Of a stretch of 64,000 nt of DNA, positions 1-22,770 are shown piece by piece; position 1 is the stretch's first letter, and every line of letters starts with the position of its first letter. The translations under genes and the position numbers were made by a program. The notes under the pieces were generated by a model. That model was given only the letters and a program-made list of their open reading frames with translations, was not told the origin of the DNA and did no database searches. The stretch spans positions 1 through 64,000 of the forward strand of contig JAVKHQ010000006.1 in the NCBI GenBank assembly GCA_031459875.1, in the 5' to 3' direction. This DNA comes from Candidatus Fervidifonticultor sextus (GTDB lineage: Bacteria > Sysuimicrobiota > Sysuimicrobiia > Sysuimicrobiales > Humicultoraceae).

Positions 1-613
1 CGACCGCGGCCGTCTGGGTCCGGAAGGCGAGCACCCCACGCGCTACCTGGTCGTGCTGGCCAACGGTGACGTCTTCCATCAGTTCGGCCCGAACGCGATG
101 GCGCGCTACAACGCCGCCGCGGGGCGAATCGAGCGGCTGCCGCTGGTGATGTCGGGGACGGGGACCTATGAGCCGCCGTACGCGCTGGCGGCAGCGCCGG
201 ACGGACGGCGGTTCTTCGGGGTGGGAAAGGAGAGCGGACAGGTCTACCTCTACGAACCACGCGAGCGGGAAGTGGGCTTGCGGATGTTGGGCGCGGCGAT
301 CCCGGAGGGGTACGCCACCCCCGGGGTGCACTACACGATAACGGCCGCCCCCGACGGGGCGGTGTACTACACGGGCTTGCTGCCGGGAGGGGGAGGGAGA
401 GACCTCTTCATCCTGCGCGTGTGGCCCGACCAGGGCCGGCCACAGGTGGTGGGACGGGTGGCGGCGCTTCCGCCCCCGCCGCCGGGATACACGCGCCCCG
501 CCTCCGCCGATGCATGGGTCCAGGGCTCGACCGCCACCCCGGACGGGACCCTGATCGTCATGCAGGCCTACCCCCTCAGGCTGTTATTGTTCAGAGGGCT
601 GGCCGCGCGCTAG
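1..613 (+). CDS. Beta-propeller-like repeat protein, 3' part (start lies left of the window); paralogue of 17901..19100
   Basis: ORF open from the window edge; repeats such as ALAAAPDGRRFFG and ITAAPDGAVYY; near-identical to the reverse complement of ~17912..18516. Confidence 0.8.
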   Translation, partial: DRGRLGPEGEHPTRYLVVLANGDVFHQFGPNAMARYNAAAGRIERLPLVMSGTGTYEPPYALAAAPDGRRFFGVGKESGQVYLYEPREREVGLRMLGAAIPEGYATPGVHYTITAAPDGAVYYTGLLPGGGGRDLFILRVWPDQGRPQVVGRVAALPPPPPGYTRPASADAWVQGSTATPDGTLIVMQAYPLRLLLFRGLAAR

Positions 614-1672: not shown

Positions 1673-2844
1673 CGCGCATCCTGATTACAGGTGCCACCGG
1701 GTTCATTGGGGGTCGGCTCGCCGAGGTCGCCTGCCAGCTCGGCATTCCCACCGTCGCCCTTGTCCGGACCTGGGCGCGTGCCGCGTTGCTTTCCCGCCTG
1801 CCGCTCACGATGGTACCGGGAGATATCCTGGAGCTCGACACGCTGCGGCGCGCTGTGCGAGGATGCGATGTCGTGTTCCACTGCGCGGTGGACTTTCGAC
1901 GAATCGGCATGGCCCACCGACGCTCGAGCGTCCTGGGTACCCGCAATGTCCTGCAGGCAGCGGCGGAGGCGCGTGTCAAACGCGTTGTCTTTCTGAGTAG
2001 TATCGCCGTCTACGGCCGCACCCCGCCCCCGCGGATCGTCACGGAAGACGAGCCGGTACGGCACACAGGCGACAACTACGGCGACGGCAAGCTCGACGCG
2101 GAGCGCCTTGCGCTCCGCACCTTTCTCGACCGCGGCATCCCGGTCGCCGTCCTGCGCCCGACGATCGTCTACGGACCTTTCGGGGGATACTGGACTCCGG
2201 CCACGGTCGGCGCTATCAAGAACGGCAGCATGGTCCTCGTGAACGGCGGTAGCGGTGTCTGCAACTGCCTCTATGTGGACAACTTGGTGCAGGCCATGCT
2301 GCTGGCTGCGCAGCACCCCGGCGCTCCTGGCGAGGTCTTCCATGTCTCAGATGAGTCTCCAGTGCCCTGGAAGGAATTTGTAGAGGGACATGCGCGGGCG
2401 CTCGGGGACGGATTCCTGCCGCTGCCCGAGATGACCGTGGAGGAGATCGAGGCGGCCCGGGCCCGTCTGCGGCAACGCCGTCCGTCCTCCATCAAGCAGA
2501 CACTGACAGTGCTGAAGGACCCCCGGATCCGCATGGCGCTCCGGTCGATTCCGGCGGTGGCCCAGGTCGAGGCATTCGGGAAGGCGATCGTCCGGAACGT
2601 TCTGCCGGTTCGGGCCCAGCACTTCCTTCGCGAAACCGTCATCGGTTGGACCCGTTCTGTCCCGGGATCGGCTTCGGGAGTCACAGACCGCCCGCTCCTC
2701 CCCCGCGGGATGGTGCAGGTCCACGCGTCCCGAACGGTTTTCAGTGTCGAGAAGGCCCGACGCGTGCTGGGCTACGCTCCCCGGGTGGACTTCCATGAGG
2801 GAATGGAGCGAACGGCCGCGTGGATCCGCTGGGCGCGGCTCTGA
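1669..2844 (+). CDS. NAD-dependent epimerase/dehydratase (extended SDR)
   Basis: ITGATGFIG, FLSSIAVYG, YGDGK (YxxxK), LRPTIVYGP; ATGA overlap with the upstream stop. Confidence 0.9.
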   Translation: MTRILITGATGFIGGRLAEVACQLGIPTVALVRTWARAALLSRLPLTMVPGDILELDTLRRAVRGCDVVFHCAVDFRRIGMAHRRSSVLGTRNVLQAAAEARVKRVVFLSSIAVYGRTPPPRIVTEDEPVRHTGDNYGDGKLDAERLALRTFLDRGIPVAVLRPTIVYGPFGGYWTPATVGAIKNGSMVLVNGGSGVCNCLYVDNLVQAMLLAAQHPGAPGEVFHVSDESPVPWKEFVEGHARALGDGFLPLPEMTVEEIEAARARLRQRRPSSIKQTLTVLKDPRIRMALRSIPAVAQVEAFGKAIVRNVLPVRAQHFLRETVIGWTRSVPGSASGVTDRPLLPRGMVQVHASRTVFSVEKARRVLGYAPRVDFHEGMERTAAWIRWARL

Positions 2845-2882
2845 GAGCGTCAGCGAGCCTATCAGACCACGTTGGGACCACC

Positions 2883-3845
2883 ATGGGCGGCTCTTCTGAA
2901 CAGAAAGTTGTGGCCGTCATTCTGACGCACAACAGGCTCGAAGGGGCGATCATGCGGTGCGAGGAGGTCACCCGGCAGACGCGCCCGCCGGATGATATCG
3001 TGCTGGTGGACAACGGGAGCGCCCGGGGGATCGCAGAGCAGATCACCTCACGGTTCCCGCAGGTTAGCGTCGTCCGTCTGCCGGAGAACCTCGGCCCTGC
3101 CGGCGGCTTCGCCGTGGGGTTCTCAGAAGCGATGCGGCGCGGCTGTGATTTCGTCTGGGCCATTGACGACGATACTGTGGTGTCGGCCCGGTGCCTGGAG
3201 GCACTGCTTGCGGACGCAGAGACAGCGCCCCGCAGCGTCATCTTTCCTTCGCGCCTTCCTCACCACGAGAAGCACGGAGTGGCGTGGCGGGCCATGCTCG
3301 TCCCGGCGGATGTGGTGCGGTCGGTGGGCGTTCCCCGGGCGGACCTCTTCTGGCACCTGGAGGACACCGAGTACTTCATCCACCGGATCCGTGATGTGGC
3401 CGGATACCGCTTGATAATCTCGCCCAAGGCGGTAGTCTGGCACGGGACACACCGCCCCCGAAAGGGATTCCCGGGCTGGAAGCTCTACTACCAGACGCGC
3501 AACTCGATCTTCTATCGCTTCCGTCTTAAACGCAGTTGGTGGCGGCGGCTGCTGACGCTCCTCCGCGTTGCCGGTCGCCTCGTGGTCATCTTCGCGCGGG
3601 AGGAACGCGGGCCAGCCAAGGCATGGTTGATGGTGCGGGGGGTTGCAGACGGCCTCCGGGGGCGGATGGGCAAGACCGTCGACCCCCAGTCCGAACCCCC
3701 ATCAACGCTCGCCGGTAGCAGCCCCGACACCCGCGAACGCGAAGAGGCGGAAGAGGCGTTCAGGCGTTGGGACGCCGATTCAGAAACGCGGGAGACGATG
3801 CTGCGACTCTGGATGAATGATCTGGAGCGACAGACGGGGGCATAG
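2883..3845 (+). CDS. Glycosyltransferase family 2
   Basis: VVAVILTHN, VLVDNGS, NLGPAGGF, WAIDDD, EDTEY, YYQTRN motifs. Confidence 0.85.
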   Translation: MGGSSEQKVVAVILTHNRLEGAIMRCEEVTRQTRPPDDIVLVDNGSARGIAEQITSRFPQVSVVRLPENLGPAGGFAVGFSEAMRRGCDFVWAIDDDTVVSARCLEALLADAETAPRSVIFPSRLPHHEKHGVAWRAMLVPADVVRSVGVPRADLFWHLEDTEYFIHRIRDVAGYRLIISPKAVVWHGTHRPRKGFPGWKLYYQTRNSIFYRFRLKRSWWRRLLTLLRVAGRLVVIFAREERGPAKAWLMVRGVADGLRGRMGKTVDPQSEPPSTLAGSSPDTREREEAEEAFRRWDADSETRETMLRLWMNDLERQTGA

Positions 3846-3866
3846 GGCCAAAGCGAGGGGTTCGGT

Positions 3867-5105
3867 ATGGGCCACGTGCGCCCCAGGGTGAGCGTCATCA
3901 TTCCGGCGTACAATGCCGAGCCGTTCATCCGCGCGGCAATTGAGAGCGTTCTGGCACAGACGTATCGCGCAGGGGAGATATTGGTTGTTGACGACGGTTC
4001 CACCGATGGGACGGCGGCCGCCGTTCAACCCTTTCACCCGCACGTTCGCCTGATCAATCAGGTCAATCAGGGGCCGTCGGCGGCACGCAACACAGGGATT
4101 CTGAGCAGTTCTGGAGAGTTGCTGGCGTTCCTCGACGCCGATGACATCTGGTGTCCCGAGTTCCTGCAACAGGCGGTGAGCCTGCTGGAGGCGCGGCCGG
4201 GCGTGGACGTGGTCTACACATGGGCGCAGTTTGTGGACCAGGATGGAGGCCTGCTCCCCGATCGCCTCTGCTCAAGTCTCGAAAGCCTGACGCTCCGACG
4301 GCTTCTGCTCGGCGGCGATCCGGTGCTGTTCTCCTCGGTCGTCGCCCGGCGGTCCGCGTTTGCGAGAGTCGGCCTGTTCGACCCCTCCCTGCGTCAGGCG
4401 GAGGACTGGGACATGATCCTCAGAATGGTCGCGGCGGGCATCCGGTTCGCCTCCATCCCACGGGCCCTCGTCTACCGGCGCGTGCATCCAGACAGTGTAA
4501 CGGCCGATGCGGGCAGTGCGCTCCCCTGGGAGCGGTCGGCGCTGCGGAAAGCCCTTGACACGCTCCCGCTGCCATCTGATTGTCAAGGGCTTGCCCCGCA
4601 GGCTACATTCAGGATCCTCCAGAGGGCAGCGATGGCCTACTGGAGGCGCGGTGACCGCCGCACGGCCGTGGAGAGGCTTCTGGAAGGGTTTGCCGAGTGG
4701 CCGGCGGCCCTGGCGCGTCCCCAGACCTATCTGGGCCTGATCTCTAGGCTCCTGCCGTCAGGATTCAAGGACGATGGGACGGTGTTGCGCGACCTCGACA
4801 GGCTGAGGGACGAGGCCGTCCGGCTCTTGGGCGAAGTCTTCGGCAGCCCGGATCTCCCGCCTGTCGTCCGTAGCCGTGAGCGCGCCGCATGGAGTGCACT
4901 CCACGCGGCGCTGGCCCTGCTGTTCCTCAGGCGGAGGAGTTGGCGAAGCGCGCTGGCGCACGGCGCGCGGTCACTGTGGCTTCATCCGATCCCTCCGCTA
5001 CAGGGGGGTGTGCTGGCCGCCCGCCGGGCTGCTGCCAAAAGCGTGGGGCTGCTGAGGGTGCCTGCGGTTCTCGACGACCGTGGGCAAGGATCACCACTTG
5101 GATGA
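3867..5105 (+). CDS. Glycosyltransferase family 2
   Basis: VSVIIPAYN, VVDDGSTD, NQGPSAARN, FLDADD, AEDWD motifs. Confidence 0.9.
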   Translation: MGHVRPRVSVIIPAYNAEPFIRAAIESVLAQTYRAGEILVVDDGSTDGTAAAVQPFHPHVRLINQVNQGPSAARNTGILSSSGELLAFLDADDIWCPEFLQQAVSLLEARPGVDVVYTWAQFVDQDGGLLPDRLCSSLESLTLRRLLLGGDPVLFSSVVARRSAFARVGLFDPSLRQAEDWDMILRMVAAGIRFASIPRALVYRRVHPDSVTADAGSALPWERSALRKALDTLPLPSDCQGLAPQATFRILQRAAMAYWRRGDRRTAVERLLEGFAEWPAALARPQTYLGLISRLLPSGFKDDGTVLRDLDRLRDEAVRLLGEVFGSPDLPPVVRSRERAAWSALHAALALLFLRRRSWRSALAHGARSLWLHPIPPLQGGVLAARRAAAKSVGLLRVPAVLDDRGQGSPLG

Positions 5106-6522: not shown

Positions 6523-7125
6523 TCAGGCCCGCGTCTCAATGACCACGAATGTCGGTGTGAGAAGGCCGAGGCCGCACGATATGGTTCGCGTCACGAGGAT
6601 ATAGGGAAAGTAGCCAAACAGACGGGCCTCGGGGAAGAGCCGGCGCATGTCTGCGATGGTGAAGAAGTGCTTGTGGTCGGGATTCTGGGCCTTCGCCGGC
6701 GGGATCCCAAACAACCCGAGAATGCGGTAGATCCAGCACCCGCTGTTGGGCGTGGTGAGCACGAGCAGGCCTCCCGGTTTGAGCACTCGGCGAAACTCGG
6801 CGACGGCCAGGGCAGGATCCCGCAGGTGTTCCAGCACTTCGCTGCACCAGATTAGATCAAAGGTGCGATCCGCATAGGGCAGCGGCTGGTTGGCGTCAAC
6901 GACTTCTGCCTGAGGATATTGCGGGTTGATGTCGATCGAACAGACCGTGTAGCCACGTTGTTTGAGGATTTCGGAGTAGTATCCGTCACGACATCCGATG
7001 TCCAGCGCGCGCATACCGGACGACGCGGCGGGCACGTGACGAAGGGCGATTCGCTTGCCGGCGGTCCGGTGCTTGAGATGAGCCTGTCCGAAGTCAATCG
7101 GGAGACGCTTGAGAAAATCCAACAT
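6523..7125 (-). CDS. Class I SAM-dependent methyltransferase
   Basis: ALDIGCRDG, FDLIWCSEVLEH, RVLKPGG motifs; ATG at 7125. Confidence 0.85.
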   Translation of the reverse strand: MLDFLKRLPIDFGQAHLKHRTAGKRIALRHVPAASSGMRALDIGCRDGYYSEILKQRGYTVCSIDINPQYPQAEVVDANQPLPYADRTFDLIWCSEVLEHLRDPALAVAEFRRVLKPGGLLVLTTPNSGCWIYRILGLFGIPPAKAQNPDHKHFFTIADMRRLFPEARLFGYFPYILVTRTISCGLGLLTPTFVVIETRA

Positions 7126-7139
7126 GCCTGTGAGGCTTG

Positions 7140-7167
7140 ATTCTCCGCCAGCTCCCCCCGGTCCTGT
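7140..7167 (-). promoter_or_regulatory. SigH-like promoter motif ACAGGAC-N12-GCGGAGAAT
   Basis: AGGA-N18-GAAT, 14 nt upstream of the methyltransferase ATG. Confidence 0.55.
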
Positions 7168-7305
7168 CCTGCAATCGTTGGCAGCGCTGGTGCTGGTCGC
7201 ACTCTTCCTCGTTGGCGGTTCGTCGACTTCCCCCGTCTGGTTTGTGTCCCGGCAGCAGAGGCGCGCTGGAGCTTCCTGTGCCCGCGCGCTGTCTGGAGGT
7301 GTCCG

Positions 7306-7692
7306 ATGATACGTCTCGTTGCGGTGGTCGTTCTCGTGATGATCTCCGGCTTGCTCCACGCGGCATCGGGGCAGCAGCAGGCGAAACCGACACCCGCCGA
7401 AACCGAGCCCAAAGCCAAGGCCACCCCCGCCGGCGACTTCGCCATCGGGCAGGTTGAGGCCGTTCGGCCCGGCACACCCACCACGCTCGTCTTGAGGGTC
7501 GTCGAGGCGTCAGACAGCGTCCGTCGGATCAAGGTCGAGGGCCGGCTGACGGTGGAGCTGCCGGCGTCGGTACTGCGCGGGATCCAGGGCGGTGCCGCCG
7601 CCATTCGGGTGGGTGACCATGTGCGGGTCGCCGGTATTGTCCGTGACGGCAGGCTCATCGTGACGAGCGCGATGGTCCTCAGAGGCAAGTAG
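7306..7692 (+). CDS. Small secreted OB-fold-like hypothetical protein
   Basis: GGAGG RBS, signal peptide, IRVGDHVRVAG motif. Confidence 0.6.
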   Translation: MIRLVAVVVLVMISGLLHAASGQQQAKPTPAETEPKAKATPAGDFAIGQVEAVRPGTPTTLVLRVVEASDSVRRIKVEGRLTVELPASVLRGIQGGAAAIRVGDHVRVAGIVRDGRLIVTSAMVLRGK

Positions 7693-8909: not shown

Positions 8910-11113
8910 CCTCTTCGTATCCGACCGGAGAACTCGCGCAGGCCGCTCTGCCGGGGGTCCTCGCTCCGTTCTTCAACCCGAAGACGATTGCCGTGATTGG
9001 TGCCTCCGAGACTCCCGGGCTGGCGCGGGACCTTCTGATGACCCTGGACAGCCGGGGGTTTCGAGGTGATGTGCTCCCCGTCAACCCCCGGCACCGGCAG
9101 GTGCTCGGGCGGCGCTGCTACCCCGATGTGCGGTCCCTACCAACGGTGGCGGACCTGGCCGTCGTCCTGGTGCCGGCCGAGGCGACCCCGGAGGTCGTTG
9201 CGGCCTGCGGGCAGGCGAAGGTCCCCGGTGCAGTCATCTGCTCGTCGGGGTTTGCGGAAGTCGGCGAGGACGGCCGGGGTCTCCAGGCCCGCCTTGGCCG
9301 GCAGGCGCGCGCGGCGGGGCTTGCGCTGCTCGGCCCCAACTCCATCGGGTTTCTCAATGTGCCCGCCACCATCCCTGCTATGGCGGTTCCCCCGGCCAGC
9401 ATCCCTGCAGGACTTCGACCCGGTCCCGTCAGCGTGGTCTCGCAGAGCGCGGGCATCCTGATCTCGATGCTGGAATACGGGACCCAGATTGGCCTGGGGT
9501 TTGACCTCCTGGTCTCGACGGGGAACGAAGAGCAGGTGGGTGCGGCGGACTGTCTGGAGTACCTGCTCCACACCCCGACGACGCGGGTCATCGCCCTGGT
9601 CCTGGAGACCGCTCGTGATGGGCGACGCCTGCTCGACCTGGCCGTGCGGGCGCGTGCTCTGGGAAAGGCGGTGGTGGCCCTCAAGCTCGGCCGGTCGGCG
9701 CGGGGTGCTGAGGCGGCACGCTCGCACACGGCGGCGCTGGCCGGGTCGGCCGCAGTGTTCGACGCGGCCTGCCGCGACGCCGGCATCGAGGTCTTCGAGA
9801 GCATCTCGGGGCTCGTGGATGCCGCGGCGTTCCACAGCAAACGGCGGCCGGGGGTGCGTGGCGGCCTGGCGGCCATTACGATCTCGGGTGGGACGGCGGC
9901 CCTGGTGGCCGACGTGGCGGACCGCTTCGGCGTGCGTCTGGCCGACCTCGCTCCGCAGACGCAGCAGCGCCTGATGGGCCTCGTCCCCGCTGGCAGCGCT
10001 GTGGTCAACCCGCTGGATGTGACGGCCGCGGCCATCGAGGACGCCGAACTCTTCGCCCGCGTGGTCGGCGCGCTCAACGACGACCCCGACGTGGGAGCCA
10101 TCGCGCTCGTCCTGCACCTGAGGAAAGGCGGGGGCAGCCCGGCCCACCAGCGCCTGATTCGGACCTTTGTCGCGCAGCACGACCGGGTTTCCAAGCAACT
10201 CGTGGTCGTCTCGACGATCCCGGAGGCGCTGTCCGGCTTCTGGCACGAAGAGGCCGCCGCCGGCCCGGTGCCCTTCCTGAACGACCTTTCCGCGCTGGCG
10301 GCGCTCCGTGGTCTGACGGCTTCCGTCGAGCCGACGGTTAAGACGCGCCGTGAGAATCCTCCGGACGTCCCCGAGGTGTCTCTGGATGCCCTCAAGACCC
10401 CCGTCACCGGCGACGGCCTGTTGGCGGAGGTCGACGCCTATCGATTGCTGGAGGCGGCGGGTATCGCCGTGGCTCCCTATCTGGTGGCGCGTTCGCGAGA
10501 GGAAGCGGTCGCCGGGGCCGACCGGCTGGGCTATCCAGTGGTGCTCAAGGTCATCGCCGGCGTCGCCCACAAGGCGGCGGCGGGGTTGGTTCGGCTGGGC
10601 CTCCGCTCGGCCGACGACGTCGCCCGCGCCTACGACGAGCTCGGCTTGGTTCCTCTGCCGTCCGCAGCAGCGCGCAGGGGCGTGCTGGTTCAGGCCATGG
10701 TCGCGCCTGGCATGGAATTCCTGGTCGGCTTCCGGGTGGACCCGCAGTTTGGTCCGGTCGTGGCGGTGGGTCTGGGGGGCGTCTGGGCCGAGGCGCTGCG
10801 CGATGTCCAGATCGCCCTGGCCCCTGTGGATCCGCGGCAGGCTCTGGCGTTGATCGGCAGGCTCCGATCGGGCCACGCCCTCCAGGAACGCGCAGTCCAG
10901 GCCAAGGTGGATCTGGACGACGTCGCAGAGGTCACCAGCCGTCTCTCGCACCTTGCCGTGCGATTGGCGTCGCGCGTTTCATCGCTGGAGATCAACCCGC
11001 TGATCGCTACCCCGCGAGGCTGCCTGGCCGTGGATGCCCTCGGGGTGGTGTCGGGGGTTCGAGATTGCCCGACCACGGTTGACGTGGCAGCCGCCAGGAC
11101 CGGCGGCAGATGA
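8906..11113 (+). CDS. Acyl-CoA ligase (ADP-forming, acetate--CoA ligase family) with C-terminal ATP-grasp
   Basis: IAVIGAS, LLGPNSIG, VSQSAG, ARSHTAALAG phospho-His, GYPVVLK, DPQFGPVV, LEINPL; GTG at 8906. Confidence 0.9.
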   Translation: MTSSYPTGELAQAALPGVLAPFFNPKTIAVIGASETPGLARDLLMTLDSRGFRGDVLPVNPRHRQVLGRRCYPDVRSLPTVADLAVVLVPAEATPEVVAACGQAKVPGAVICSSGFAEVGEDGRGLQARLGRQARAAGLALLGPNSIGFLNVPATIPAMAVPPASIPAGLRPGPVSVVSQSAGILISMLEYGTQIGLGFDLLVSTGNEEQVGAADCLEYLLHTPTTRVIALVLETARDGRRLLDLAVRARALGKAVVALKLGRSARGAEAARSHTAALAGSAAVFDAACRDAGIEVFESISGLVDAAAFHSKRRPGVRGGLAAITISGGTAALVADVADRFGVRLADLAPQTQQRLMGLVPAGSAVVNPLDVTAAAIEDAELFARVVGALNDDPDVGAIALVLHLRKGGGSPAHQRLIRTFVAQHDRVSKQLVVVSTIPEALSGFWHEEAAAGPVPFLNDLSALAALRGLTASVEPTVKTRRENPPDVPEVSLDALKTPVTGDGLLAEVDAYRLLEAAGIAVAPYLVARSREEAVAGADRLGYPVVLKVIAGVAHKAAAGLVRLGLRSADDVARAYDELGLVPLPSAAARRGVLVQAMVAPGMEFLVGFRVDPQFGPVVAVGLGGVWAEALRDVQIALAPVDPRQALALIGRLRSGHALQERAVQAKVDLDDVAEVTSRLSHLAVRLASRVSSLEINPLIATPRGCLAVDALGVVSGVRDCPTTVDVAAARTGGR

Positions 11114-11751
11114 CCAAAGAAGGGGGGCGCCTGATGGAGGGGGTGGAGCGGGGGTCGCGGTGGTCCGAAGGGCCTCGGGTGCGTGTCAAGCCCCGGGTGA
11201 TCCCACGCGCGGGGGCGGTCCGGCTGTCCACGGAGCCTCTCCGGCGCGACCTGCAGGAGCTCGAACGCCGTTTTCTTCTCCTTCAGGGTCTTTTGGCCGA
11301 GGGTCCTTTTCAGGACTTCACGGCGGAGTTCTGTGCCATCCTCGGAGAGTTGGGTGCCATCGGAAATCGACTGGCAGAGATGGCCGGCCGCAGGAACATC
11401 ACCTACCTGGTCGACCGCAGGTTGGCGATTCTGCTCCAGTACTGCCTCTGGCTGGCCCGGCGGGTGAGCGCCGAGTGCCTCCTCCACCATCAGATCCGGC
11501 TGGAACAGGAACTGAAACGGCTCATCGGGCCGGAGGCCTACCAGGTCTACCTCCGCCTTGAGGACGTGGAAGACGCGGCGCGGGAGGTTGACATGCTCGA
11601 CGACCGCGACATGATGCGTCGCCTGCGCGAGGGCACGCTGGCGCGGGAGATCCTCGAGCAGGTCCTCGGGAGCGAAGAACAGACCTGGCTCTTCCCCAAT
11701 GGTGAGGAGGAGGACCGCCCGGCCAGCGGAGAGGACTCCGAGGGCCGATAA
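11110..11751 (+). CDS. Hypothetical helical protein
   Basis: 213-aa ORF coupled by an ATGA overlap (alternative ATG at 11134); no recognised motif. Confidence 0.6.
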   Translation: MTKEGGRLMEGVERGSRWSEGPRVRVKPRVIPRAGAVRLSTEPLRRDLQELERRFLLLQGLLAEGPFQDFTAEFCAILGELGAIGNRLAEMAGRRNITYLVDRRLAILLQYCLWLARRVSAECLLHHQIRLEQELKRLIGPEAYQVYLRLEDVEDAAREVDMLDDRDMMRRLREGTLAREILEQVLGSEEQTWLFPNGEEEDRPASGEDSEGR

Positions 11752-11862
11752 GGCTGGACGGCCGCGCGAGAACGAGGTATGCGAGATGTTCAACTTCCCC
11801 AAATCTTCCATCAAATTCCCGCGACCGTTCAACGAAGCCGGGAACTTGGAATTTCAGCATCG

Positions 11863-11890
11863 GCAGGATTCTTCCCAGGGCATCTCGTAA
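11863..11890 (+). promoter_or_regulatory. SigH-like promoter motif upstream of the RiPP precursor
   Basis: GCAGGAT-N12-ATCTCGTAA, same spacing as five other sites; -10 element is a variant. Confidence 0.5.
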
Positions 11891-11924
11891 TAAGCCATAT
11901 CCCCTGGAGAGGAAGGGGTGCGCC

Positions 11925-12053
11925 ATGAAGTACGAAACGCCTACCATCAAGGACTACGGCTCCATTGCTGAGCACACGTTTGGGGAAGCCGATCGGCCGA
12001 TCGTCGGTGGGGCCGTTCCGAGGAAGTTCTCGCTGGACGTGGACCGGCGGTAG
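11925..12053 (+). CDS. Lasso-type RiPP precursor peptide, 42 aa: MKYETPTIKDYGSIAEHTF-GEADRPIVGGAVPRKFSLDVDRR
   Basis: Below the ORF-track length cutoff; purine-rich RBS; leader YxxPxIxxxGxxxxxT with Thr at -2 and Gly at +1; adjacent RRE and B2 genes. Confidence 0.85.
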   Translation: MKYETPTIKDYGSIAEHTFGEADRPIVGGAVPRKFSLDVDRR

Positions 12054-12058
12054 CGCAC

Positions 12059-12080
12059 AGGGTTCGTCCTTCGGGCCTTT
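12059..12080 (+). terminator. Stem-loop after the precursor gene (leaky terminator or mRNA stabiliser)
   Basis: AGGGTTCG-TCCTT-CGGGCCTT hairpin with G:U pairs and a short T run. Confidence 0.4.
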
Positions 12081-12110
12081 CCCCACAATGAATCTCTGAG
12101 GGCAGACGTC

Positions 12111-13073
12111 GTGCCCGCGCGAACCTCGACCGTGGCGGTCGAGGTTCTCAATATCTCTCGACGATTCGGCGATACGGTGGCCCTCCACGACGTGTCGCTT
12201 CGCCTGGGTCCAGGCGGGGTCCACGCGCTACTGGGGCCCAATGGATCTGGCAAGACCACGCTCCTGCGCATCCTCCTGGGGCTGACCGAGCCAACCTCCG
12301 GCACCGTGCGCATCATGGGTATGCCGCCCGGTCGCCGGGTTCGGAGGGCGCTCGTGGGCTTGGTGCCGGCCGGGTCGCGTACGTTCTACCACCGGCTCTC
12401 CGGCCTGGAGAACCTGGTGTTCTTCGCGCGTCTCCACGGGATGCCGTATGCGATGGCGCTGGCCCGCGCGCGCGAGGTACTGGTTCAGGTGGGCTTGCAG
12501 TCTGCCGCCCATCTCAGGGTGGGCAAGTACTCCCATGGAATGCAGTCGTGTCTTGGGCTTGCCAGGGCCTTCCTGGCCGATCCACCGGTGCTGCTGGCCG
12601 ACGAGGCCACGCACGATCTAGATCCCGAGGCCGCGCGGCGCGTGCAGGGACTCGTCCGGCTGGCCGCCGAGCGCGGGACGACCGTGGTCTGGGCAACGCA
12701 GCGGGTTGACGAAATCGAGGGATTCGCTCATACCGTGATTCTCCTCGCGCAGGGGCGGGTCAGGTTCGCGGGCCCGGTGGAGCACCTGCTGGCGCACTCC
12801 GCCAGGCGGTACGTCCTGAACGTGGAGGATGGACGTTCGGCCGCCGGGGCGCTGGGCGAGGTGCTGAGCCGCGCCCTCGGGCGTCTGGGGGACGTGACGG
12901 CGCCCCCCGGGACTGCCGACGGCCACGTCACCCTCGACCTTGCCGACGGCGTGGCGCTGGGCGACGCCATTGCCGCACTGGCGGCCGCCGGGGTGAAGGT
13001 CACCTCGTGCCGGCAGGAACGCTCCGGGATGGAGGAGGCGTTCCTTCGGCTGACGGGATCTTCGATGCCATGA
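12111..13073 (+). CDS. ABC exporter ATP-binding protein
   Basis: Walker A GPNGSGKT, YSHGM signature, LLADE Walker B. Confidence 0.9.
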   Translation: MPARTSTVAVEVLNISRRFGDTVALHDVSLRLGPGGVHALLGPNGSGKTTLLRILLGLTEPTSGTVRIMGMPPGRRVRRALVGLVPAGSRTFYHRLSGLENLVFFARLHGMPYAMALARAREVLVQVGLQSAAHLRVGKYSHGMQSCLGLARAFLADPPVLLADEATHDLDPEAARRVQGLVRLAAERGTTVVWATQRVDEIEGFAHTVILLAQGRVRFAGPVEHLLAHSARRYVLNVEDGRSAAGALGEVLSRALGRLGDVTAPPGTADGHVTLDLADGVALGDAIAALAAAGVKVTSCRQERSGMEEAFLRLTGSSMP

Positions 13074-13885
13074 TCGTCGAGATCGGCAAACTCGGGGCTT
13101 TCCTCCGACGGGATTTCCTCATCGCGCTGAGTTACCGGGTCGGGTTCGCCGCCGACCTGGTCAACCTGCTGGCCCAGGCGGTATTGTTCTACTACGTCAG
13201 CCTGATTGTGGACCCCGCGCGGATGCCGAGTTTCGGAGGGACACGGGCCGGCTACGTGGCGTTTGTCGCCGTAGGCATCGCGGTCAGCGCGCTCCTCCAC
13301 ACAGGAGTGGCTGGAATGGCGCACGCCATTCGCGGCGAGCAATTGACGGGCACGCTCGAGTCCCTGCTGGTCACGCCCACGTCCGCGTGGACGCTGCAGC
13401 TCGGTTCGGTGATTTATGATCTCTCGTATGTGCCGGTGCGGACCGCGGCGTTTCTGGCAATTGTGGCCGTAGTTTTCGGCGTAGACTTCCACCTCGATGG
13501 CATTCTCCCGGCCCTGGCCCTCCTGGTGGTCTTCCTGCCCTGCGTCTGGGGTTTGGGCGCCGCCAGCGCCGCGGCAGTGCTCACGTTTCGGCAGGTGTCG
13601 GGCATCATCGGGCTCGCCACCGCGGCGCTCAGTATAGCTTCGGGAGCCTACTTTCCACACGACCTCCTGCCCGGCTGGCTCGCCGGCACGGCCCGCGTGA
13701 ACCCCGTGGCCCTTGCGCTGGGGGGTGCACGGGAGGCACTGCTGGGCGGCGGCGGGTGGTCGGCCGTCGTCCCCTACGCTCTGATGCTTGCCCCCTTCTC
13801 GGCTGTTTCCTTGATCCTGGGCGGCCTGGCGTTCCAGCTTGCGCTCCAGCGGGAGCGCCGCCTTGGCACACTGGGCTTGTATTGA
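13070..13885 (+). CDS. ABC-2 type permease
   Basis: Multiple hydrophobic segments, EQLTGTLESLLVTP, SGAYFP..LPGWL motifs. Confidence 0.9.
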   Translation: MIVEIGKLGAFLRRDFLIALSYRVGFAADLVNLLAQAVLFYYVSLIVDPARMPSFGGTRAGYVAFVAVGIAVSALLHTGVAGMAHAIRGEQLTGTLESLLVTPTSAWTLQLGSVIYDLSYVPVRTAAFLAIVAVVFGVDFHLDGILPALALLVVFLPCVWGLGAASAAAVLTFRQVSGIIGLATAALSIASGAYFPHDLLPGWLAGTARVNPVALALGGAREALLGGGGWSAVVPYALMLAPFSAVSLILGGLAFQLALQRERRLGTLGLY

Positions 13886-13897: not shown

Positions 13898-14197
13898 GTG
13901 ACCTTCTCTCCCATCCGCCCCGGCGATCGCGTCTCCCGGAACGCCAAGGTGGTGTCCCGCTGGCTGGGGGAGGAAGAGGGCGCGGTCCTGCTCCACCTGG
14001 AATCCGGGCAGTACCATGGACTTAACAGGATGGGCTGGGTGATCTGGAATCTCCTGGAAGGTCCCCGGACGTTCGGCGACCTGGTGGACGATGTGCGGAA
14101 GCAGGTGGAGGATCCGCCCGCGGAACTCGAGGCCGAAGTCGGGAGATTTCTAGATTCCCTGCACGCCCGCCACCTGGTCGAGATCGAGCCGGCCTGA
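13898..14197 (+). CDS. PqqD-family RiPP recognition element (lasso B1-like)
   Basis: 99 aa; AVLLHLESGQYHGLNRMGWVIWNLL...FLDSLHARHLV; GGAGG RBS. Confidence 0.9.
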   Translation: MTFSPIRPGDRVSRNAKVVSRWLGEEEGAVLLHLESGQYHGLNRMGWVIWNLLEGPRTFGDLVDDVRKQVEDPPAELEAEVGRFLDSLHARHLVEIEPA

Positions 14198-14217: not shown

Positions 14218-15157
14218 ATGGCCACGTCTCACGTGACGCCTCCTGTCCCTCCGAGCCAGGGCACCTGCTATGGGTTTGCTGTTCGGTCCGACCTTCGGCT
14301 CCACTACCTGCGCGGTGGAGGCGGCGACCCGCTGGAGGTCGTGGCCGGGTCAACCCCGGACGAGTCTGCAGGGGGGGCATCTGCTGTGCGAGTGGGGGAC
14401 TCCTCCGGGTCAACCCGACGTCCGACTCTACCAGCACGGCTCTCGGTACCGGCTCTGGATCGACGGTGGCGGGAGTTACGAAGTCGACCCAGAGGGCGGA
14501 CGGATCGTGGTCCCCGAGGATGAGGACGGGCGCCGGCGTGAACAACTGTTGTGGAGTCTCCCTTCCGCCGTCTACCTCCTCCACCGAGGCGATCTGCCGA
14601 TCCACTCGGCGGCCGTTGAGATCGATGGCATCGGAGTCCTGCTGGGCGCGCCCGGCGGTCACGGGAAGACGACGCTGGCGGCGGCCTGCTACCAGGCCGG
14701 CCACCGGGTTCTTTCGGAGGACCTGACTTGCGTCCGTCTGTCGCCGGATCCGGTGATCATCCCCGGTCCTGCGATGCTGCGGCTGCGGCGGGATGTCCTT
14801 GAGTCGCTCGGCCTGTCCGATTCCTCCTCCGTGTTCTGGCATGGCAACCGGGTCAGCCTGGCCCTCGACCGTCAGAGGGGCGACTGCCGCCCCGTGCCCC
14901 TCGGGGCGATGGTCTTGCTCCGGCGGGACGCTCATGCTGTGCGCAGCGAGCGGGTCTGCGCAGTCGACGCCGTCAGAGATCTCTGGGAACTGAGCTTCTA
15001 CCTGCCCTCTGATGACGGGATGGCTAGGTGTTTTGCGCAGGTCGTGGATCTCGCAAGGATCGTACCTGTCTGGAATCTCTACCGCCCCATGCGGGTTGAC
15101 ATCCTTCCATCCGTCGTTGCTCTGATCGAGGTGCTGGCGGCGGGGCATGGTCGCTGA
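14218..15157 (+). pseudogene. HPr-kinase-like RiPP kinase, frameshifted at a G7 tract (14371..14377)
   Basis: N-terminal CYGFAVRSDL in one frame; IHSAAV, P-loop GAPGGHGKTT and LSED in another; removing one G fuses them. Confidence 0.75.
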
Positions 15158-15560
15158 ACGGCGCACGCGGCTGTCGCTGATGGCGCGGGTGGGACTGGTG
15201 CTGCGCGTCTGGCGCTGGTTCGCTTTCGTGCGGCTGCGGGTGGGCACTGACCCTTTGCCCCAGCTCGTCATGCAGCTCCGGCAGACCGCCCATCCGTCGC
15301 CGCGCCGGTATCCGCCGGGCACGCTCAGCCGGGCGGTGGACCGGAGCCTGCGCTTCGGCAACGTGAGATCCAGTTGTCTTACGAAGGCACTGGTGCTGTT
15401 TCGGCTCCTCAGGGAGCAGGGTGACCCGGCTGAGCTTGTTATCGGGCTGCCTGAGGATGGAGGCGCGCCAGGGGCGCACGCCTGGGTGGAACTCCACGGA
15501 TGGGACGTCGGGCCGCCGCCCGGCCGGGGCGTGCATACCGCTCTGGCGCGATTTCAATGA
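15147..15560 (+). CDS. Lasso peptide B2-type leader peptidase (transglutaminase-like)
   Basis: SCLTKAL (catalytic Cys), LVIG, AHAWVE (His) motifs. Confidence 0.9.
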   Translation: MVAERRTRLSLMARVGLVLRVWRWFAFVRLRVGTDPLPQLVMQLRQTAHPSPRRYPPGTLSRAVDRSLRFGNVRSSCLTKALVLFRLLREQGDPAELVIGLPEDGGAPGAHAWVELHGWDVGPPPGRGVHTALARFQ

Positions 15561-17581
15561 ACGACGAGGTGAGCCCGGTCTCCCGGGGCGACATCCTGAT
15601 CGCCTGCCTGATCGAACCGGATGCGGAGCCTCCCCGGCCCGGGCCACCCCTCTCTGAGTTGGTTGCCGGGTGTGATCTCGCCTGGCTGCCGCACGCGGCG
15701 CACTACCACGGCATCGCCGGGTACGTGTACCGCGCTCTGAAGGAACTCCCTGGCATCGACCCCCGGACGCTGGCCTCGCTGGAGACGCTGTACCGGTTAG
15801 GACTTGGCAGGCATCTCAGGGCCATTGGTGACTTGAGCCATCTCCAGGCGGTCCTGGACCGCGCGAGCGTCCGCTGGCTCGTGGCGGATGGTCCCGTCCT
15901 GGCCGAGACGGGATATCCGCGGCCGGATCTGCGCGCGTATGACGGGGTACATCTTGTCATCCCCCGGGAAGCCCTCTCGGTGGCCCTGCTGACGCTTGAG
16001 GGCGCTGGATGCCTGATCCGTCGCCGGGGGGAGAGCCTGCGCGCTAGCAGGGTCGACCTCACTCTCCGCTACGGGACTGCTGCCTGCCTGCGCTGTCATA
16101 TTGGAGACAGCGCCGATGGGGCACCGGAGCCCGATTCTCCAGGGTCAGGCATCTTCGACAGGGCTCGCCGGGTGCGGCTGGCATCCACCGTCGTGGCGAC
16201 CCTGGATGCCGCCGATGCGCTCATCTTCCTTGCGGCGCGCGCCACCGAGGACAGCAGCCGCCTGGGCCTGTTGAAAGACGTCGAGCGAATCCTGGCCACC
16301 ACGCCCATCTCCTGGGAGGAAGTCGTTCTCCGGTCCCGTACGTGGGGTCTTGCCGGTTCGGCCGGCGCCGCGCTGCGTCGGGCCCGGCAGGTGCTGTCGG
16401 CGCCGGTACCTCCAGATGTCATCCGGGCGTTGGCCAATGGCACCGGCCATCTCCCGAGCAAGGCGCGCCGGCCGCTAGGCCAGACTGACGGGCAGCCGAT
16501 GGTCTCATCGGCGTCGATCCTGCTCCACCTCATCCACGTGGATCCGAATCCATTGCCCCAGGATCTCCAAATCGACTGGGATGGTGTGGTGAGGCTGGCG
16601 GTGCGCGAGCGCCTGGCGCCGCTGGCGTTTGTCGGTCTCGACCGGGCCCGCGCCCCGGACTTCGTCAGGTCCATGCTGGCCCAGCCTTACCGTGAGGCGG
16701 TCGCCTCGGCCGCCGACGCCTACTGGCAGGCTGTCGAAGCCCTCCGGGTGCTGAGGGCCGAGGGCATCACGCCGATCCCACTGAAGGGCGCGGCCATGGC
16801 GCAGTTCGTCTACCGGGATGTGGGGCTCCGTCCGTTCGTTGACCTGGACTTTCTGGTCCGTGCTGAGCAGATCGATGCGGTCCATCGGGCCCTGCAGGCG
16901 GCAGGATACGCCATGGTGGGGGAGCGTCCCACGGACGCGGATCTGACCTGGCGGCACGGACGGGCGTACTTCGATCCGTCCGGGCACAGGATCTCTGTGG
17001 ACGTCCACTGGCGGTATCTGGGCTATCCGTGGCTGATGCCCTTCGACTTCGAGGGCGTCTTCGCCCGGGCGGCGGAGGCGTCTCTGGGGGAGGAACCGGT
17101 CCTCCTGGCCGCCCCCTGCGATATGATCGTGGCCACCAGCGCCTACTTCCTCCGCGAGCTCTGGTACGGGAAACCGAAGCTTCGCTACCTCCGCGATCTG
17201 GCCGAACTCTCTGTCCGTTCCGCGGTGGACTGGGACTGCGTGATCAACGTGGCCGCGGCCACGCCGCGCATTCGCCCCCCGCTCTACCTGACGCTGGCGG
17301 CGGCCGCCGGACTACTCGGCGCGGCGGTTCCGGAGGAGGTATTGGAGCGGCTGCGGCCCCGACGGAAGCCACGGGTCACCAGTCGCCTCGAGGCCGCCGT
17401 CTCCCGCAACATCCTGCGCATCGATTCCCCCATCCAGGCGGTGGGACAGGTGGCCCTCATGCGTTGGATCGACGAGCCATCCCTGACGGTCATGCTGCGG
17501 TGGCTCCTGGCTCTTCTCTTCGTTCCCCGGCCACTGGCCTCCAGCCAGCGGCGGTGGCTGCAGCGGATCTGGCGGCGATGA
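15557..17581 (+). CDS. Nucleotidyltransferase family protein (NTP_transf_5-like), two tandem domains
   Basis: Second domain PLKGAAMAQFVY..LRPFVDLDFLV, VDVHW, YLRDL; first domain is a degenerate copy; ATGA overlap with B2. Confidence 0.85.
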   Translation: MNDEVSPVSRGDILIACLIEPDAEPPRPGPPLSELVAGCDLAWLPHAAHYHGIAGYVYRALKELPGIDPRTLASLETLYRLGLGRHLRAIGDLSHLQAVLDRASVRWLVADGPVLAETGYPRPDLRAYDGVHLVIPREALSVALLTLEGAGCLIRRRGESLRASRVDLTLRYGTAACLRCHIGDSADGAPEPDSPGSGIFDRARRVRLASTVVATLDAADALIFLAARATEDSSRLGLLKDVERILATTPISWEEVVLRSRTWGLAGSAGAALRRARQVLSAPVPPDVIRALANGTGHLPSKARRPLGQTDGQPMVSSASILLHLIHVDPNPLPQDLQIDWDGVVRLAVRERLAPLAFVGLDRARAPDFVRSMLAQPYREAVASAADAYWQAVEALRVLRAEGITPIPLKGAAMAQFVYRDVGLRPFVDLDFLVRAEQIDAVHRALQAAGYAMVGERPTDADLTWRHGRAYFDPSGHRISVDVHWRYLGYPWLMPFDFEGVFARAAEASLGEEPVLLAAPCDMIVATSAYFLRELWYGKPKLRYLRDLAELSVRSAVDWDCVINVAAATPRIRPPLYLTLAAAAGLLGAAVPEEVLERLRPRRKPRVTSRLEAAVSRNILRIDSPIQAVGQVALMRWIDEPSLTVMLRWLLALLFVPRPLASSQRRWLQRIWRR

Positions 17582-17592: not shown

Positions 17593-17904
17593 CTACAGTC
17601 TGGCCGGGCGGATCCAGGCGGCCGTCAGTTCCATGCCTTCACGGGAGCTGATCTTCGGTTCGAAGCCGAGCAGGCGTTGGGCCTTCTCGGTGCTGCAAAC
17701 GGTCGTGTCGGCGTACAGGTGTACCAGGCTTCGCGGGAGCAGGGGGCGCGGCGGCGGGCCGCCATCGTCAGGTGAATCCGAGCGGACCATGATGTCAGCC
17801 ACCCTCTGCCGGAGCCGTCGCTGCGTCCCCTCGGGTAGCATCCTCGCCACTCCACGTGCCACCAGCTCCATCCTCGTCACGATCGGGACCGCCCGGATGG
17901 TCAT
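17593..17904 (-). pseudogene. C-terminal remnant of an NAD-dependent epimerase paralogue
   Basis: RPLLPR..EKAQRLLGFEPK..EGMELTAAWIRPARL aligns with the C-terminus of 1669..2844; no Rossmann domain. Confidence 0.7.
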
Positions 17905-19100
17905 TGCCGCGCGCCCAGTCCCCTGAAGATCAGCAGCCGCAGCGGGTACGCCTGCATGACGATCAGGGTCCCGTCTGGAGTCGCGGTCGAGCCCTGGATG
18001 ATGAGCTCGCGCGTCGTCGCCCGCGAATATCCCGCTGGCGGGGGTGGCAGCGTCGCCACCCGTCCTACCACCTGCGGCAGGCCCTGGTCGGGCCACACGC
18101 GCAGGATGAAGAGGTCCCTCCCTCCCCCTCCCGGCAGCAAGCCCGTGTAATACACCGCCCCGTCTGGAGCGGCGGTCATCGTGTAGTGCACCCCGGGAGT
18201 CGTGTATCCCTCCGGTACCGCCGCGCCCAGCATCCGCAAGCCGACCTCCCGCTCGCGCGGATCGTAGAGGTAGACCTGCCCGGTCTCCTTTCCCACACCG
18301 AAGAACCGCCGTCCGTCGGCTGAGACGGCCAGCGCGTACGGCGGCTCATAGGTTCCCGTCCCCGACATCACCAGCGGCAGCCGCTCGATGCGCCCCGCGG
18401 CGGCGTTGTAGCGTGCCATCGCGTTTGGGCCGAACTGATGGAAGACGTCACCGTTGGCCAGCACGACCAGGTAGCGCGTGGGGTGCTCGCCTTCCGGACC
18501 CAGACGGCCGCGGTCGGCAAACGTCCGCGTGCGCGGATCGTAGACGATCAGGTGGCTCTCAGGGTCGCTGAGCACGTAGACGTTTCCCCGCACGCGGTCC
18601 AGCCCCACGGCGATGATGCTCATCCCCGGCGTCCCGGGCCTGGGGATGCCCAGGTCGGTCGTGGTCCGCGTGCGCGGATCGTAGACCAACAGGTGCCCGC
18701 CCGGGTACCGTTGCCAGGCGGGATCCTTGCTGCGGCCCCCCGACTTCGTCCCGAAGTAGACGCGCCCGTCCGGAGCGATGGCCGGCTTGGTGTGGACCTT
18801 CGCCTGACCGGCCGGCCCCGGCAGGCGCTCCCCGGTGGCCGCCGACATCTCGGCGAGGCTCTCGAACCGTCCCGTGCGCGGCGAGTAGGCGAGCAGGTGC
18901 CCGTAGCCGTTGTAGATTGTCGTGCCGATGTACACGGTCCCATCGGGGCCGGCCTGGATCGCCGTGTACGCGCCCCCGGTATGGTACTCTTCGGGGACGT
19001 AGACGATCGACGGGACGAGCACGCGGTCTGCCGACGCGAACGCCGTCGCCACGAACAGGATGGTAACAGCCAACCCCGCGACGCCGCGCCCTGCGACCAT
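17901..19100 (-). CDS. Secreted beta-propeller-like repeat protein
   Basis: Signal peptide, repeated YDPRT and PDG.VY.GT blades; GGAGG RBS. Confidence 0.8.
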   Translation of the reverse strand: MVAGRGVAGLAVTILFVATAFASADRVLVPSIVYVPEEYHTGGAYTAIQAGPDGTVYIGTTIYNGYGHLLAYSPRTGRFESLAEMSAATGERLPGPAGQAKVHTKPAIAPDGRVYFGTKSGGRSKDPAWQRYPGGHLLVYDPRTRTTTDLGIPRPGTPGMSIIAVGLDRVRGNVYVLSDPESHLIVYDPRTRTFADRGRLGPEGEHPTRYLVVLANGDVFHQFGPNAMARYNAAAGRIERLPLVMSGTGTYEPPYALAVSADGRRFFGVGKETGQVYLYDPREREVGLRMLGAAVPEGYTTPGVHYTMTAAPDGAVYYTGLLPGGGGRDLFILRVWPDQGLPQVVGRVATLPPPPAGYSRATTRELIIQGSTATPDGTLIVMQAYPLRLLIFRGLGARQ

Positions 19101-21590: not shown

Positions 21591-22763
21591 ATGATCGCGC
21601 CCCACGGCGGCCGGCTGGTCAACCGCGTGCTCGAGGGGGAGGCGCGCGATGAGTGGCGCGCCCGCGCCGCCGACTTGCCGGCCGTCCCGGTCGGCCTGGA
21701 AGTCGCCTTCGACCTGGAGAACCTGGCCACCGGCGTCTTCTCCCCGCTGGAAGGATTCATGACGCGTGTGGAACTGGAGCACGTCTTGGAGCGCCGGCGC
21801 CTCCCCAGCGACCTGCCCTGGACGCTGCCGGTGGTCCTGGACGCCCCGCAGGACGCGATCGGTCGGGCCGAGCCCGGCGAGGCGGTGGCGCTGACGCACC
21901 GCGGCCGGCCCATGGCGATTCTTCACGTCTCCGACGTCTATCCCCTGGACCGCCGCGCGTTGGCCTTTGGGACCTACGGCACCCTCGACGAGCGGCATCC
22001 CGGGGTCCGGCGGGTTGCCCGCATGCACGACGTGCTGATCGGCGGCGCCGTAGACCTGATTGAGCGTGCTGACGACCCGTTCGCGTCCTACCGCCTGACG
22101 CCGGCGGAGACCCGCGTGTTGTTCCGGCTGCGCGGCTGGCGCACGGTCGTGGGCTTCCAGACGCGCAACGTCCCGCACATCGGGCACGAGTATGTCCAGA
22201 AGACGGCGCTGACGTTCGCCGACGGTCTGTTCATCAATCCGGTCATCGGACCGAAGAAGGCCGGCGACTTCAAGGACGAAGTCATCCTGGCGGCGTACGG
22301 CGCGCTGGTGGCGCACTACTTCCTGCGCGACCGGGCGGTGCTGGGGGTCTTCCGTACCGAGATGCGCTACGCGGGGCCACGCGAGGCCGTCTTCCACGCC
22401 ATCGTGCGGAAGAACTTCGGCTGCACCCACTTCATCGTGGGCCGCGACCACGCGGGGGTCGGCGACTTCTACGGGCCCTACGACGCCCACGCCATTTTCG
22501 ATGAGTTTCCTGATCTGGGCGTCGTGCCCCTGTTCTTCACCGCGTTCTTCTACTGTCGGCGCTGCGACGGGGTGGCCAACGAGAAGACCTGTCCCCACGG
22601 CTCAGACGACCGCATCCAGTTCAGCGGGACACGGCTGCGCCAGGCCCTGGAGGGTGGGGAGCCGGCTTCGGCCAGGCTGATCCGGCCGGAAGTGGCCGAG
22701 GTGATCGCGCGCTACCCCGAACCGCTGGTGGGCGCCGAGGACGCCGCGGGCCTCCCTTGCTGA
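21591..22763 (+). CDS. sat: Sulfate adenylyltransferase (ATP sulfurylase)
   Basis: PHGGRLV, FSPLEGFM, FQTRNVPHIGHE, MRYAGPREA, HFIVGRDHAG. Confidence 0.95.
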   Translation: MIAPHGGRLVNRVLEGEARDEWRARAADLPAVPVGLEVAFDLENLATGVFSPLEGFMTRVELEHVLERRRLPSDLPWTLPVVLDAPQDAIGRAEPGEAVALTHRGRPMAILHVSDVYPLDRRALAFGTYGTLDERHPGVRRVARMHDVLIGGAVDLIERADDPFASYRLTPAETRVLFRLRGWRTVVGFQTRNVPHIGHEYVQKTALTFADGLFINPVIGPKKAGDFKDEVILAAYGALVAHYFLRDRAVLGVFRTEMRYAGPREAVFHAIVRKNFGCTHFIVGRDHAGVGDFYGPYDAHAIFDEFPDLGVVPLFFTAFFYCRRCDGVANEKTCPHGSDDRIQFSGTRLRQALEGGEPASARLIRPEVAEVIARYPEPLVGAEDAAGLPC

Positions 22764-22770
22764 ACCACCC

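Follow-up and report, generated by a model that had tools for sequence, protein, structure and literature searches.

A lasso-type leader peptide in a cyclase-free operon from a hot-spring member of the Sysuimicrobiota, and a cyclase-bearing parent family with a Lys-Asp-Glu-Ser core motif

Linear polyphosphorylated peptides (LPPs), encoded by lppA-K-B-S-D-N in Paenibacillus alginolyticus (Popov et al. 2026; PMC13381572), offer a precedent for a functional pathway that combines an RRE, a kinase and a nucleotidyltransferase (NTase) without a cyclase; in the accessible portion of that report, LppN gave no visible product. According to the accessible portions of two further reports, PsmK phosphorylates a core Ser and PsmN places a hexose on the phosphate in pseudomycoidin (PMC6993621), and BsfK carries out RRE-aided phosphorylation of an internal Ser (PMC10368454). 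The operon described here resembles LPPs in its lasso-like YxxP leader, discrete RRE, HprK-like kinase, NTP transferase, exporter, polysaccharide-gene surroundings and lack of a macrolactam cyclase. Within what the accessible text on LPPs covers, the two differ in that LPPs have a SipW-like signal peptidase (no such domain was found among the genes of the present operon, which encodes a canonical B2 peptidase instead), a leader of the form YxxPxVLxHQxIxFETxxS (the present leader ends in GSIxxHTF), a Ser at core position 3 rather than 17, an MsbA-like rather than an ABC-2 type exporter, and hosts in the Bacillota rather than the Sysuimicrobiota and Thermoleophilia. LPPs are linear and bear one or more phosphates on a single Ser, as is predicted for the product of the present operon. 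The operon works like those for LPPs but is not a member of that class, as its peptidase, leader, Ser position and transporter all differ.

With the paeninodin, pseudomycoidin and bsf systems, as far as the accessible accounts describe them, the operon shares split B1 and B2 proteins, an HprK-like kinase, a nucleotidyltransferase, an ABC exporter and a leader with Thr-2 (paeninodin type); unlike them, it has no cyclase, no acid at core positions 7 to 9, a Ser that is neither C-terminal nor at position 3, and an NTase of two domains. A canonical lasso operon (A, B1, B2, C, D) has in common with it the Tyr-17/Pro-14/Gly-8/Thr-2 leader, a TbiB1-like RRE and a B2 that retains its Cys and His and scores over the NF033537 cut-off, whereas the C protein and the Asp or Glu acceptor at positions 7 to 9 are absent here.

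The window (the whole stretch of DNA that was analyzed, 64,000 nucleotides) corresponds to contig C56 of genome G000 (3.05 Mb, 96% complete). The B2 of this genome shares 93% identity with its counterpart in Candidatus Fervidifonticultor octavus, of the phylum Sysuimicrobiota, and the window DNA turns up in metagenomes of hot springs from a single study. The operon encodes, in order and all on the same strand, the precursor, an ABC ATPase, an ABC-2 permease, the RRE, the HprK-like kinase, the B2 peptidase and the nucleotidyltransferase. The exporter consists of a DrrA-like ATPase (12111-13073 (+); PF00005 E 3e-26; best NCBIfam match TIGR01188, below its cut-off) and the permease (13070-13885 (+); PF01061 E 1e-17). 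The RRE, a leader-binding protein of the B1/PqqD type (13898-14197 (+); PF05402 E 9e-18), is the sole one found in the genome, and its nearest PDB chains are TbiB1 5v1u, 9x90 and 9x8z. Likewise, the B2 lasso-type leader peptidase (15147-15560 (+); PF13471; NF033537 at 50.7 bits against a cut-off of 33) is the only B2 over the cut-off in the genome; its Cys77 and His111 are invariant in 11 homologues. The NTase, a PsmN/LppN-like protein with two NTP_transf_5 domains (15557-17581 (+); PF14907 E 9e-62, in two stretches), keeps the KG and DxD motifs in its second domain, and the first domain is eroded; a reading of this erosion as decay was rejected because the same erosion is common to the cyclase-bearing relatives introduced below.

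The HprK-like peptide kinase (14218-15157 (+); TIGR04352 E 6e-10, below cut-off) has an intact His, Walker A and acidic motif. Its His-to-Lys and acidic-pair spacing is that of BsfK as given in the accessible part of PMC10368454, with the first Asp replaced family-wide by Glu. The gene carries a frameshift at a run of seven G (14371-14377) in the present assembly and in run X1, the probable source of that assembly; it is in frame in one contig of run X2 (depth 5.3; one base fewer in the G run) and in the sister species (G002). The G run may be a slippage switch, a strain variant or an assembly error.

The precursor ORF (11925-12053 (+)) encodes 42 amino acids, and its translation is the peptide from which the analysis set out. 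A 19-residue leader (11925-11981 (+)), identical in three alleles, carries Tyr-17, Pro-14, Ile-12, Gly-8, Thr-2 and Phe-1 and is followed by Gly+1, in line with the lasso-type leader pattern with Thr-2 and Gly+1 that a reading from the sequence alone had claimed. The predicted core of 23 residues plus stop (11982-12053 (+)), whose cleavage site and modification are assigned by analogy, has its acids at positions 2, 4, 19 and 21, and positions 7 to 9 are indeed I-V-G. Its single Ser, at position 17 (codon 12030-12032 (+), the predicted phosphorylation site), is also the sole Ser, Thr or Tyr of the core and stands 6 residues from the C-terminus. All three alleles retain Lys15, Asp19 and Asp21; Glu2 varies, both other alleles having Gly in its place; and the third allele has the same precursor length and stop. 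The ribosome-binding site that the same reading had assigned to the gene was found as a Shine-Dalgarno-like AGGAAGGGG (11910-11918 (+)) 6 nt before the ATG, with a purine-rich equivalent in the sister species; its promoter motif was not confirmed, a sigma-70 scan of 11600-12300 having returned 0 sites. The ORF had also been presented as unannotated, which needs qualifying: the sister allele is already in NCBI as a hypothetical protein, so the ORF is not novel to databases.

Used as a single query in a homology search, the precursor retrieved no sequence but itself, no Pfam or NCBIfam model matched it at E 0.01, and the lasso-leader model NF033521 matched the sister allele weakly (E 0.025, below cut-off). 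The leader pattern matched 13 times genome-wide; when combined with a Met within 10 residues and a stop 10 to 45 residues past the Thr, it matched once in the 3.05-Mb genome, at the precursor, the other 12 failing the Met and stop conditions. Against the profile of the parent family described below, which includes the precursor itself, it scored E 2.6e-9 over the leader half only.

Comparison with the sister species (92% nucleotide identity, same gene order, same operon-end junction) by the Nei-Gojobori method (G000 versus G002; dS ~0.14-0.21) gave dN/dS values of 0.21 for the ATPase, 0.18 for the permease, 0.26 for the RRE, 0.17 for the kinase, 0.27 for B2, and 0.25-0.46 for three pieces of the NTase, which is higher than for most neighbors. 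For comparison, metabolic and sensor neighbors gave 0.13-0.32, chaperones and a response regulator 0.02-0.27, and a broken epimerase 0.56. The operon enzymes are thus under purifying selection (dN/dS 0.17-0.46). The precursor is identical between the two species at 125 of 129 nt, against 129 of 174 alignment columns upstream of it, and shows 3 changes at 93 nonsynonymous sites where ~13 would be expected if it were neutral (P 6e-4, at a neutral rate of 0.14 taken as a round figure from the dN/dS analysis); its own dN/dS is formally 1.06 on four substitutions, and all 3 amino-acid changes fall in the core. The 42-aa ORF is a real, conserved precursor peptide of a cyclase-free operon.

The decisive feature, which the sequence-only reading had overlooked, is the missing cyclase gene. 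No family cyclase was found in the locus or anywhere in the 96%-complete G000, nor was there a match in its congener G002 (84% complete), where the operon genes are all open except for a 137-nt unassembled gap inside the NTase. One X1 contig spans 9000-17960 without a difference, and both X1 and X2 bridge the junction at the operon end, where a convergent epimerase-like remnant (17596-17901 (-)) follows directly with no cyclase between; this remnant of an oxidoreductase/epimerase pair is already broken in G002 and is 727 nt shorter here. The sole full-length Asn_synthase protein of G000 is a canonical AsnB of the MCGIAG type in a polysaccharide locus on contig C47, scoring 102 bits against the family cyclase profile (true orthologues: at least 477 bits against a single query); it was rejected as a cyclase acting in trans, having the N-terminal Cys of a glutaminase, glycosyltransferase surroundings and no match in G002. 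In a survey of 94 genomes of the phylum, 9 had a B2 orthologue, and 7 of these also encoded a cyclase orthologue of at least 477 bits, the exceptions being G000 (AsnB only) and G002 (no match). Within the genus, the cluster is present in one of the five other genomes and missing from four.

The operon is related to a larger parent family with the leader YxxPxxxDxGSIxxHTF, with which it shares the leader, the ABC-2 pair, RRE, kinase, B2 (~45-60% identity), a Pro-x-Lys core segment and often the NTase; it differs in having no cyclase gene and a core without the family Asp, Glu, E-x-S serine and usual cysteines. Metagenomes were scanned with a B2 profile, and the best 80 of the 463 loci confirmed were kept; taken together with loci from genomes, these included 25 whose precursor is of the family type, each of them with a cyclase in the locus. 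This count omits L008 (the congener), L010 (another leader type) and the second-type precursors of L108 and L138. Among the 22 distinct cores of these loci, in whose finding the core sequence was not used, 21 have a Lys 8-10 residues before a D-x(3-4)-E-x-S motif and 6 have an acid at positions 7 to 9. A profile of 24 precursors then recovered sequences that form at least 262 clusters at 50% identity, of which 150 were listed, 149 with a parsable leader and 148 of these without the query; all core statistics that follow refer to these listed matches. The D-x(3-4)-E-x-S/T motif occurs in 134 of 148 cores, with a Lys 8-10 residues before the Asp in 122 of the 134 (30 in shuffled cores, maximum 44 in 1000 shuffles). 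A looser form of the motif is found in 132 of 149 cores against 7.5 in shuffles, a partly circular comparison because the profile carries the motif. Family examples include L069, L076, L086, L102, L009, L024, L028, L187-L190 and P0003-P0151.

The family cyclases retain the SGG(I/V)DS motif yet fall far below the cut-off of the lasso cyclase model NF033535 (125-136 bits; cut-off 525), and the loci that encode them lack lasso cores. Among the matches listed, the predicted N-terminus and the family Asp are 11-44 residues apart; the fixed Lys-Asp distance combined with this variable one points to a macrolactam between the Lys side chain and the Asp. The residue following the Lys is D, G, S or N in 114 of 130 listed cores, so that a second cut after the Lys, leaving a lasso ring of 8-10 residues, would fit too; the family ring would accordingly be one or the other. 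The precursor core retains Lys15 within the Pro-x-Lys segment, lacks the family Asp/Glu/Ser motif and ends at Lys+8, just before the Asp position, which makes it non-cyclizable by the Lys-Asp ring and the second-cut lasso alike.

The contention that a lasso-type leader here precedes a core unable to form a lasso thus stands, and it came through two attempts at refutation: among the matches listed, homologous cores do not as a rule carry Asp or Glu at positions 7 to 9 (37 of 149, against 53 in shuffled cores, range 39-66), and shifting the cut by anything between -9 and +6 brings an acid to 7 to 9 in at most 50 of 148 relatives. The want of an acid at these positions is normal for the whole family, cyclase-bearing members included, and what distinguishes the precursor core is its missing D-x(3-4)-E-x-S.

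The cyclase-bearing parent family is the bigger lead and holds most of the surprise. We tentatively propose, as a possibility that we rate somewhat below even odds, that it constitutes a large undescribed class of RiPPs in which a lasso-cyclase homologue joins the Lys side chain, not the N-terminus, to an Asp 8-10 residues downstream, giving a side-chain macrolactam that may be threaded and would carry a phosphorylated E-x-S tail; the studied operon would be its ring-less branch, one or two cyclase losses having led to a B2-dependent pathway to linear phospho(glyco)peptides. If so, the loss of the cyclase amounts to a natural experiment, one that identifies the Lys/Asp/Glu motif as the substrate of that enzyme. 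This large family of lasso-cyclase homologues has substrates that break the rule of N-terminus and position 7 to 9; use of the Lys side chain would be a new macrocyclization chemistry, likely to be discarded by pipelines that require an acid at 7 to 9. We found no description of the Lys-Asp-Glu-Ser (K-D-E-S) family or of a B2-dependent cyclase-free system in the open-licence full-text literature, and the accessible portions of PMC13352647, PMC12670498 and PMC12710340 contain nothing on the K-D-E-S family; supplementary lasso precursor data sets may list such sequences. The searches also turned up precursors of other kinds. Those of a second type (L108:1009-1251 (+) and L138:2161-2403 (+)) have the same leader class, a Gly-rich, hydrophobic, membrane-like stretch and an acidic tail, adjoin their own B2 (in L138 a kinase too) and are possibly membrane-anchored substrates. 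A Gaiellaceae precursor (L010:2755-2907 (-)), encoded near two B2 genes, has another leader type; its core has Gly1 and, at position 10, an Asp, and a 10-residue ring is possible for it.

Cyclase-free operons recur in a second phylum, outside the Sysuimicrobiota. Of 401 genomes scanned in the Thermoleophilia, the class to which a Gaiellaceae genome belongs, 8 contained a match to the precursor: 5 (G094, G188, G299, G344 and G402) with a motif-bearing core beside a cyclase, and 3 (G317, G352 and G150) with motif-free cores and no family cyclase (best scores of 24-92 bits, compared with 644 for G344). The gene order of the studied operon, with the NTase last, is found again in G317 and G352, and G150 has the same genes spread over two loci; G344 additionally carries an orphan family precursor far from its own enzymes. 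The three cyclase-free genomes belong to one family (the G352 peptide is named Miltoncostaeaceae by one source), where they make up 3 of 111 genomes, and searching at the family level from G317 and from G352 added no cases (3 of 111 both times). The cyclase-free cores have little in common beyond a late Ser, which lies 0-6 residues from the C-terminus in all 11 motif-free cores examined, 5 of them (P0149 and P0162-P0165) being counted as motif-free, not as cyclase-free. Motif-free cores of Thermoleophilia are often rich in runs of Arg and Lys, with a net charge of +4 to +9 and a Ser-containing tail (L194:8807-8908 (-), L195:9641-9754 (+), L196:9518-9649 (-) and P0162-P0165). Free trees of kinase plus B2 set two cyclase-free groups apart among cyclase-bearing loci, as expected for two losses, but their deep nodes are weak; an AU test did not reject a single cyclase-free clade (p 0.825), and the one-clade tree was 17.8 lnL units higher. 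The cyclase was therefore lost once or twice, the cyclase-free cases coming from two lineages, possibly one. Because a single clade is not rejected, the joint loss of motif and cyclase does not count as statistically independent evidence.

Genes for lasso-type leader binding and cutting, a kinase and an NTase, without an enzyme to close a ring, make a linear phosphorylated peptide the likely product. Our preferred reading, to which we assign a probability of roughly 60%, is a functional cyclase-free pathway in which B2 and the RRE release a linear 23-mer that is phosphorylated at Ser17, perhaps capped with a sugar, and exported. By analogy with known pathways, the RRE would bind the YxxPxI leader, and the kinase, as in BsfK and PsmK, would add one or more phosphates to Ser17 before leader cleavage; the NTase may then place a sugar on the phosphate, as in pseudomycoidin, B2 would cut after Thr-Phe, and the ABC-2 transporter would export the product. 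Ser17 as the kinase target, also proposed from the sequence alone, is plausible in that a K-hydrophobic-S-hydrophobic-D/N arrangement, present in the three alleles of the studied type, recurs in three other motif-free cores. The pathway would have originated in the large family with an asparagine-synthetase-like cyclase acting on K-x(7-9)-D-x(3-4)-E-x-S, cyclase and motif having been lost together. On this reading, lasso leader machinery (RRE, canonical B2, kinase and NTase) is kept under selection without a cyclase, as a route to linear phosphopeptides distinct from that of the signal-peptidase-dependent LPPs, and the single hydroxyl residue makes the 23-mer a clean substrate for the function of NTP_transf_5 enzymes such as PsmN, LppN and BsfN.

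We consider it unlikely that the operon is instead a decaying remnant whose cyclase was deleted and whose core was truncated, leaving no useful product. The kinase frameshift in G000 and run X1, the adjacent epimerase/oxidoreductase pair broken in both species with a further 727 nt gone from G000, the core ending at Lys+8 where the family has its Asp, the NTase dN/dS of up to 0.46 and the patchy occurrence in the genus are all in keeping with decay. It is harder to square with the open genes of G002 (apart from the NTase assembly gap), dN/dS values of 0.17-0.27 for five genes, a precursor that is far better conserved than the sequence around it and ends at one and the same stop in all three alleles, and the same cyclase-free design in three Thermoleophilia genomes. 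We give a rather low probability to an active operon whose product is something other than a Ser17 phospho-glycopeptide, the kinase and NTase acting elsewhere (by nucleotidylation, for example, or at the new N-terminus) or the neighboring glycosyl- and sulfo-enzymes finishing the product. In its favor, Ser17 is not clearly homologous to the family E-x-S serine, LppN was inactive heterologously (PMC13381572), and two GT2 genes, a methyltransferase, an ATP sulfurylase and an APS kinase lie within 10 kb. Against it, Ser17 is the only hydroxyl residue, a late Ser occurs in 11 of 11 motif-free cores, and PsmK, BsfK, LppK and the C-terminal-Ser kinases cited in the accessible text all phosphorylate a core Ser (PMC6993621, PMC13381572, PMC10368454).

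Two further alternatives would restore a ring. A cyclase acting in trans, encoded in an unassembled part of the genome or represented by the C47 AsnB, might join Lys15 to Asp19 or Asp21, and we regard this as very unlikely: the three alleles agree at all three residues, the two genomes are only 96% and 84% complete and the orphan precursor of G344 lies far from its enzymes, but neither genome has an orthologue, the AsnB has the features on which it was rejected above, the Lys-to-Asp spacing is 4 or 6 here, where 122 of the 134 family cores among the matches listed have 8-10, and all 25 counted loci have their cyclase at the operon. A true lasso formed through a different cleavage site is arithmetically possible from the sequence, since a cut after Gly-Gly would put Asp19 at position 9; only four residues would then remain to thread, Thr-2 is invariant, offsets of -9 to +6 give no family-wide acid at 7 to 9 and a cyclase is again wanting, so that we find this hardly credible.

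The ABC ATPase gene contains, in the 5' part of its coding sequence, a perfect 12-bp hairpin (12121-12147 (+); z -4.3 for 12100-12160). It had been described as a hairpin downstream of the precursor gene; the stem is there, but it sits within the first codons of the ATPase, lacks a U tract and received no terminator call, and no terminator was called in the scan of the precursor region. The hairpin is perfect over 12-14 bp in four of five cyclase-free loci: changes in G002 are confined to the loop, and in L193 and L194 the inner stem is the same with the outer pairs changed. Among 26 other loci with an ATPase match it was seen only in L102 (11 bp), the rest having at most 6 bp. It likely stabilizes the precursor part of the mRNA.

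Around the operon, two GT2 glycosyltransferases, a methyltransferase, an ATP sulfurylase, a protein of phosphodiesterase/sulfatase fold and an APS kinase are encoded at 2820-5105, 6523-7359 and 21591-24815, a neighborhood of sulfated-glycan type that resembles those around LPP and paeninodin clusters. Its richness in glycosyltransferase and sulfate-activation genes suggests that the preferred product, the linear phosphorylated 23-mer, is a surface- or matrix-associated peptide, and this role is the least certain part of our proposal. Upstream of the precursor, a gene for 213 amino acids (11110-11751 (+)) has no Pfam or NCBIfam match and no usable protein atlas match; it is tandemly duplicated in G002, and in L138 and L139 a homologue adjoins what is probably a response regulator. 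It was rejected as a biosynthetic part because it occurs without the peptide operon in G001 and G003. Two copies, 89% identical and in opposite orientation (17901-19100 (-) and 2-610 (+)), are present of a 399-aa protein that is probably secreted and shows weak matches of the Kelch type; contig C19 has a third, partial match. Farther along the window, an ORF of 790 amino acids (41718-44090 (+)) begins like what we take to be a DnaB helicase, is presumably much longer than DnaB usually is, and may hold an intein.
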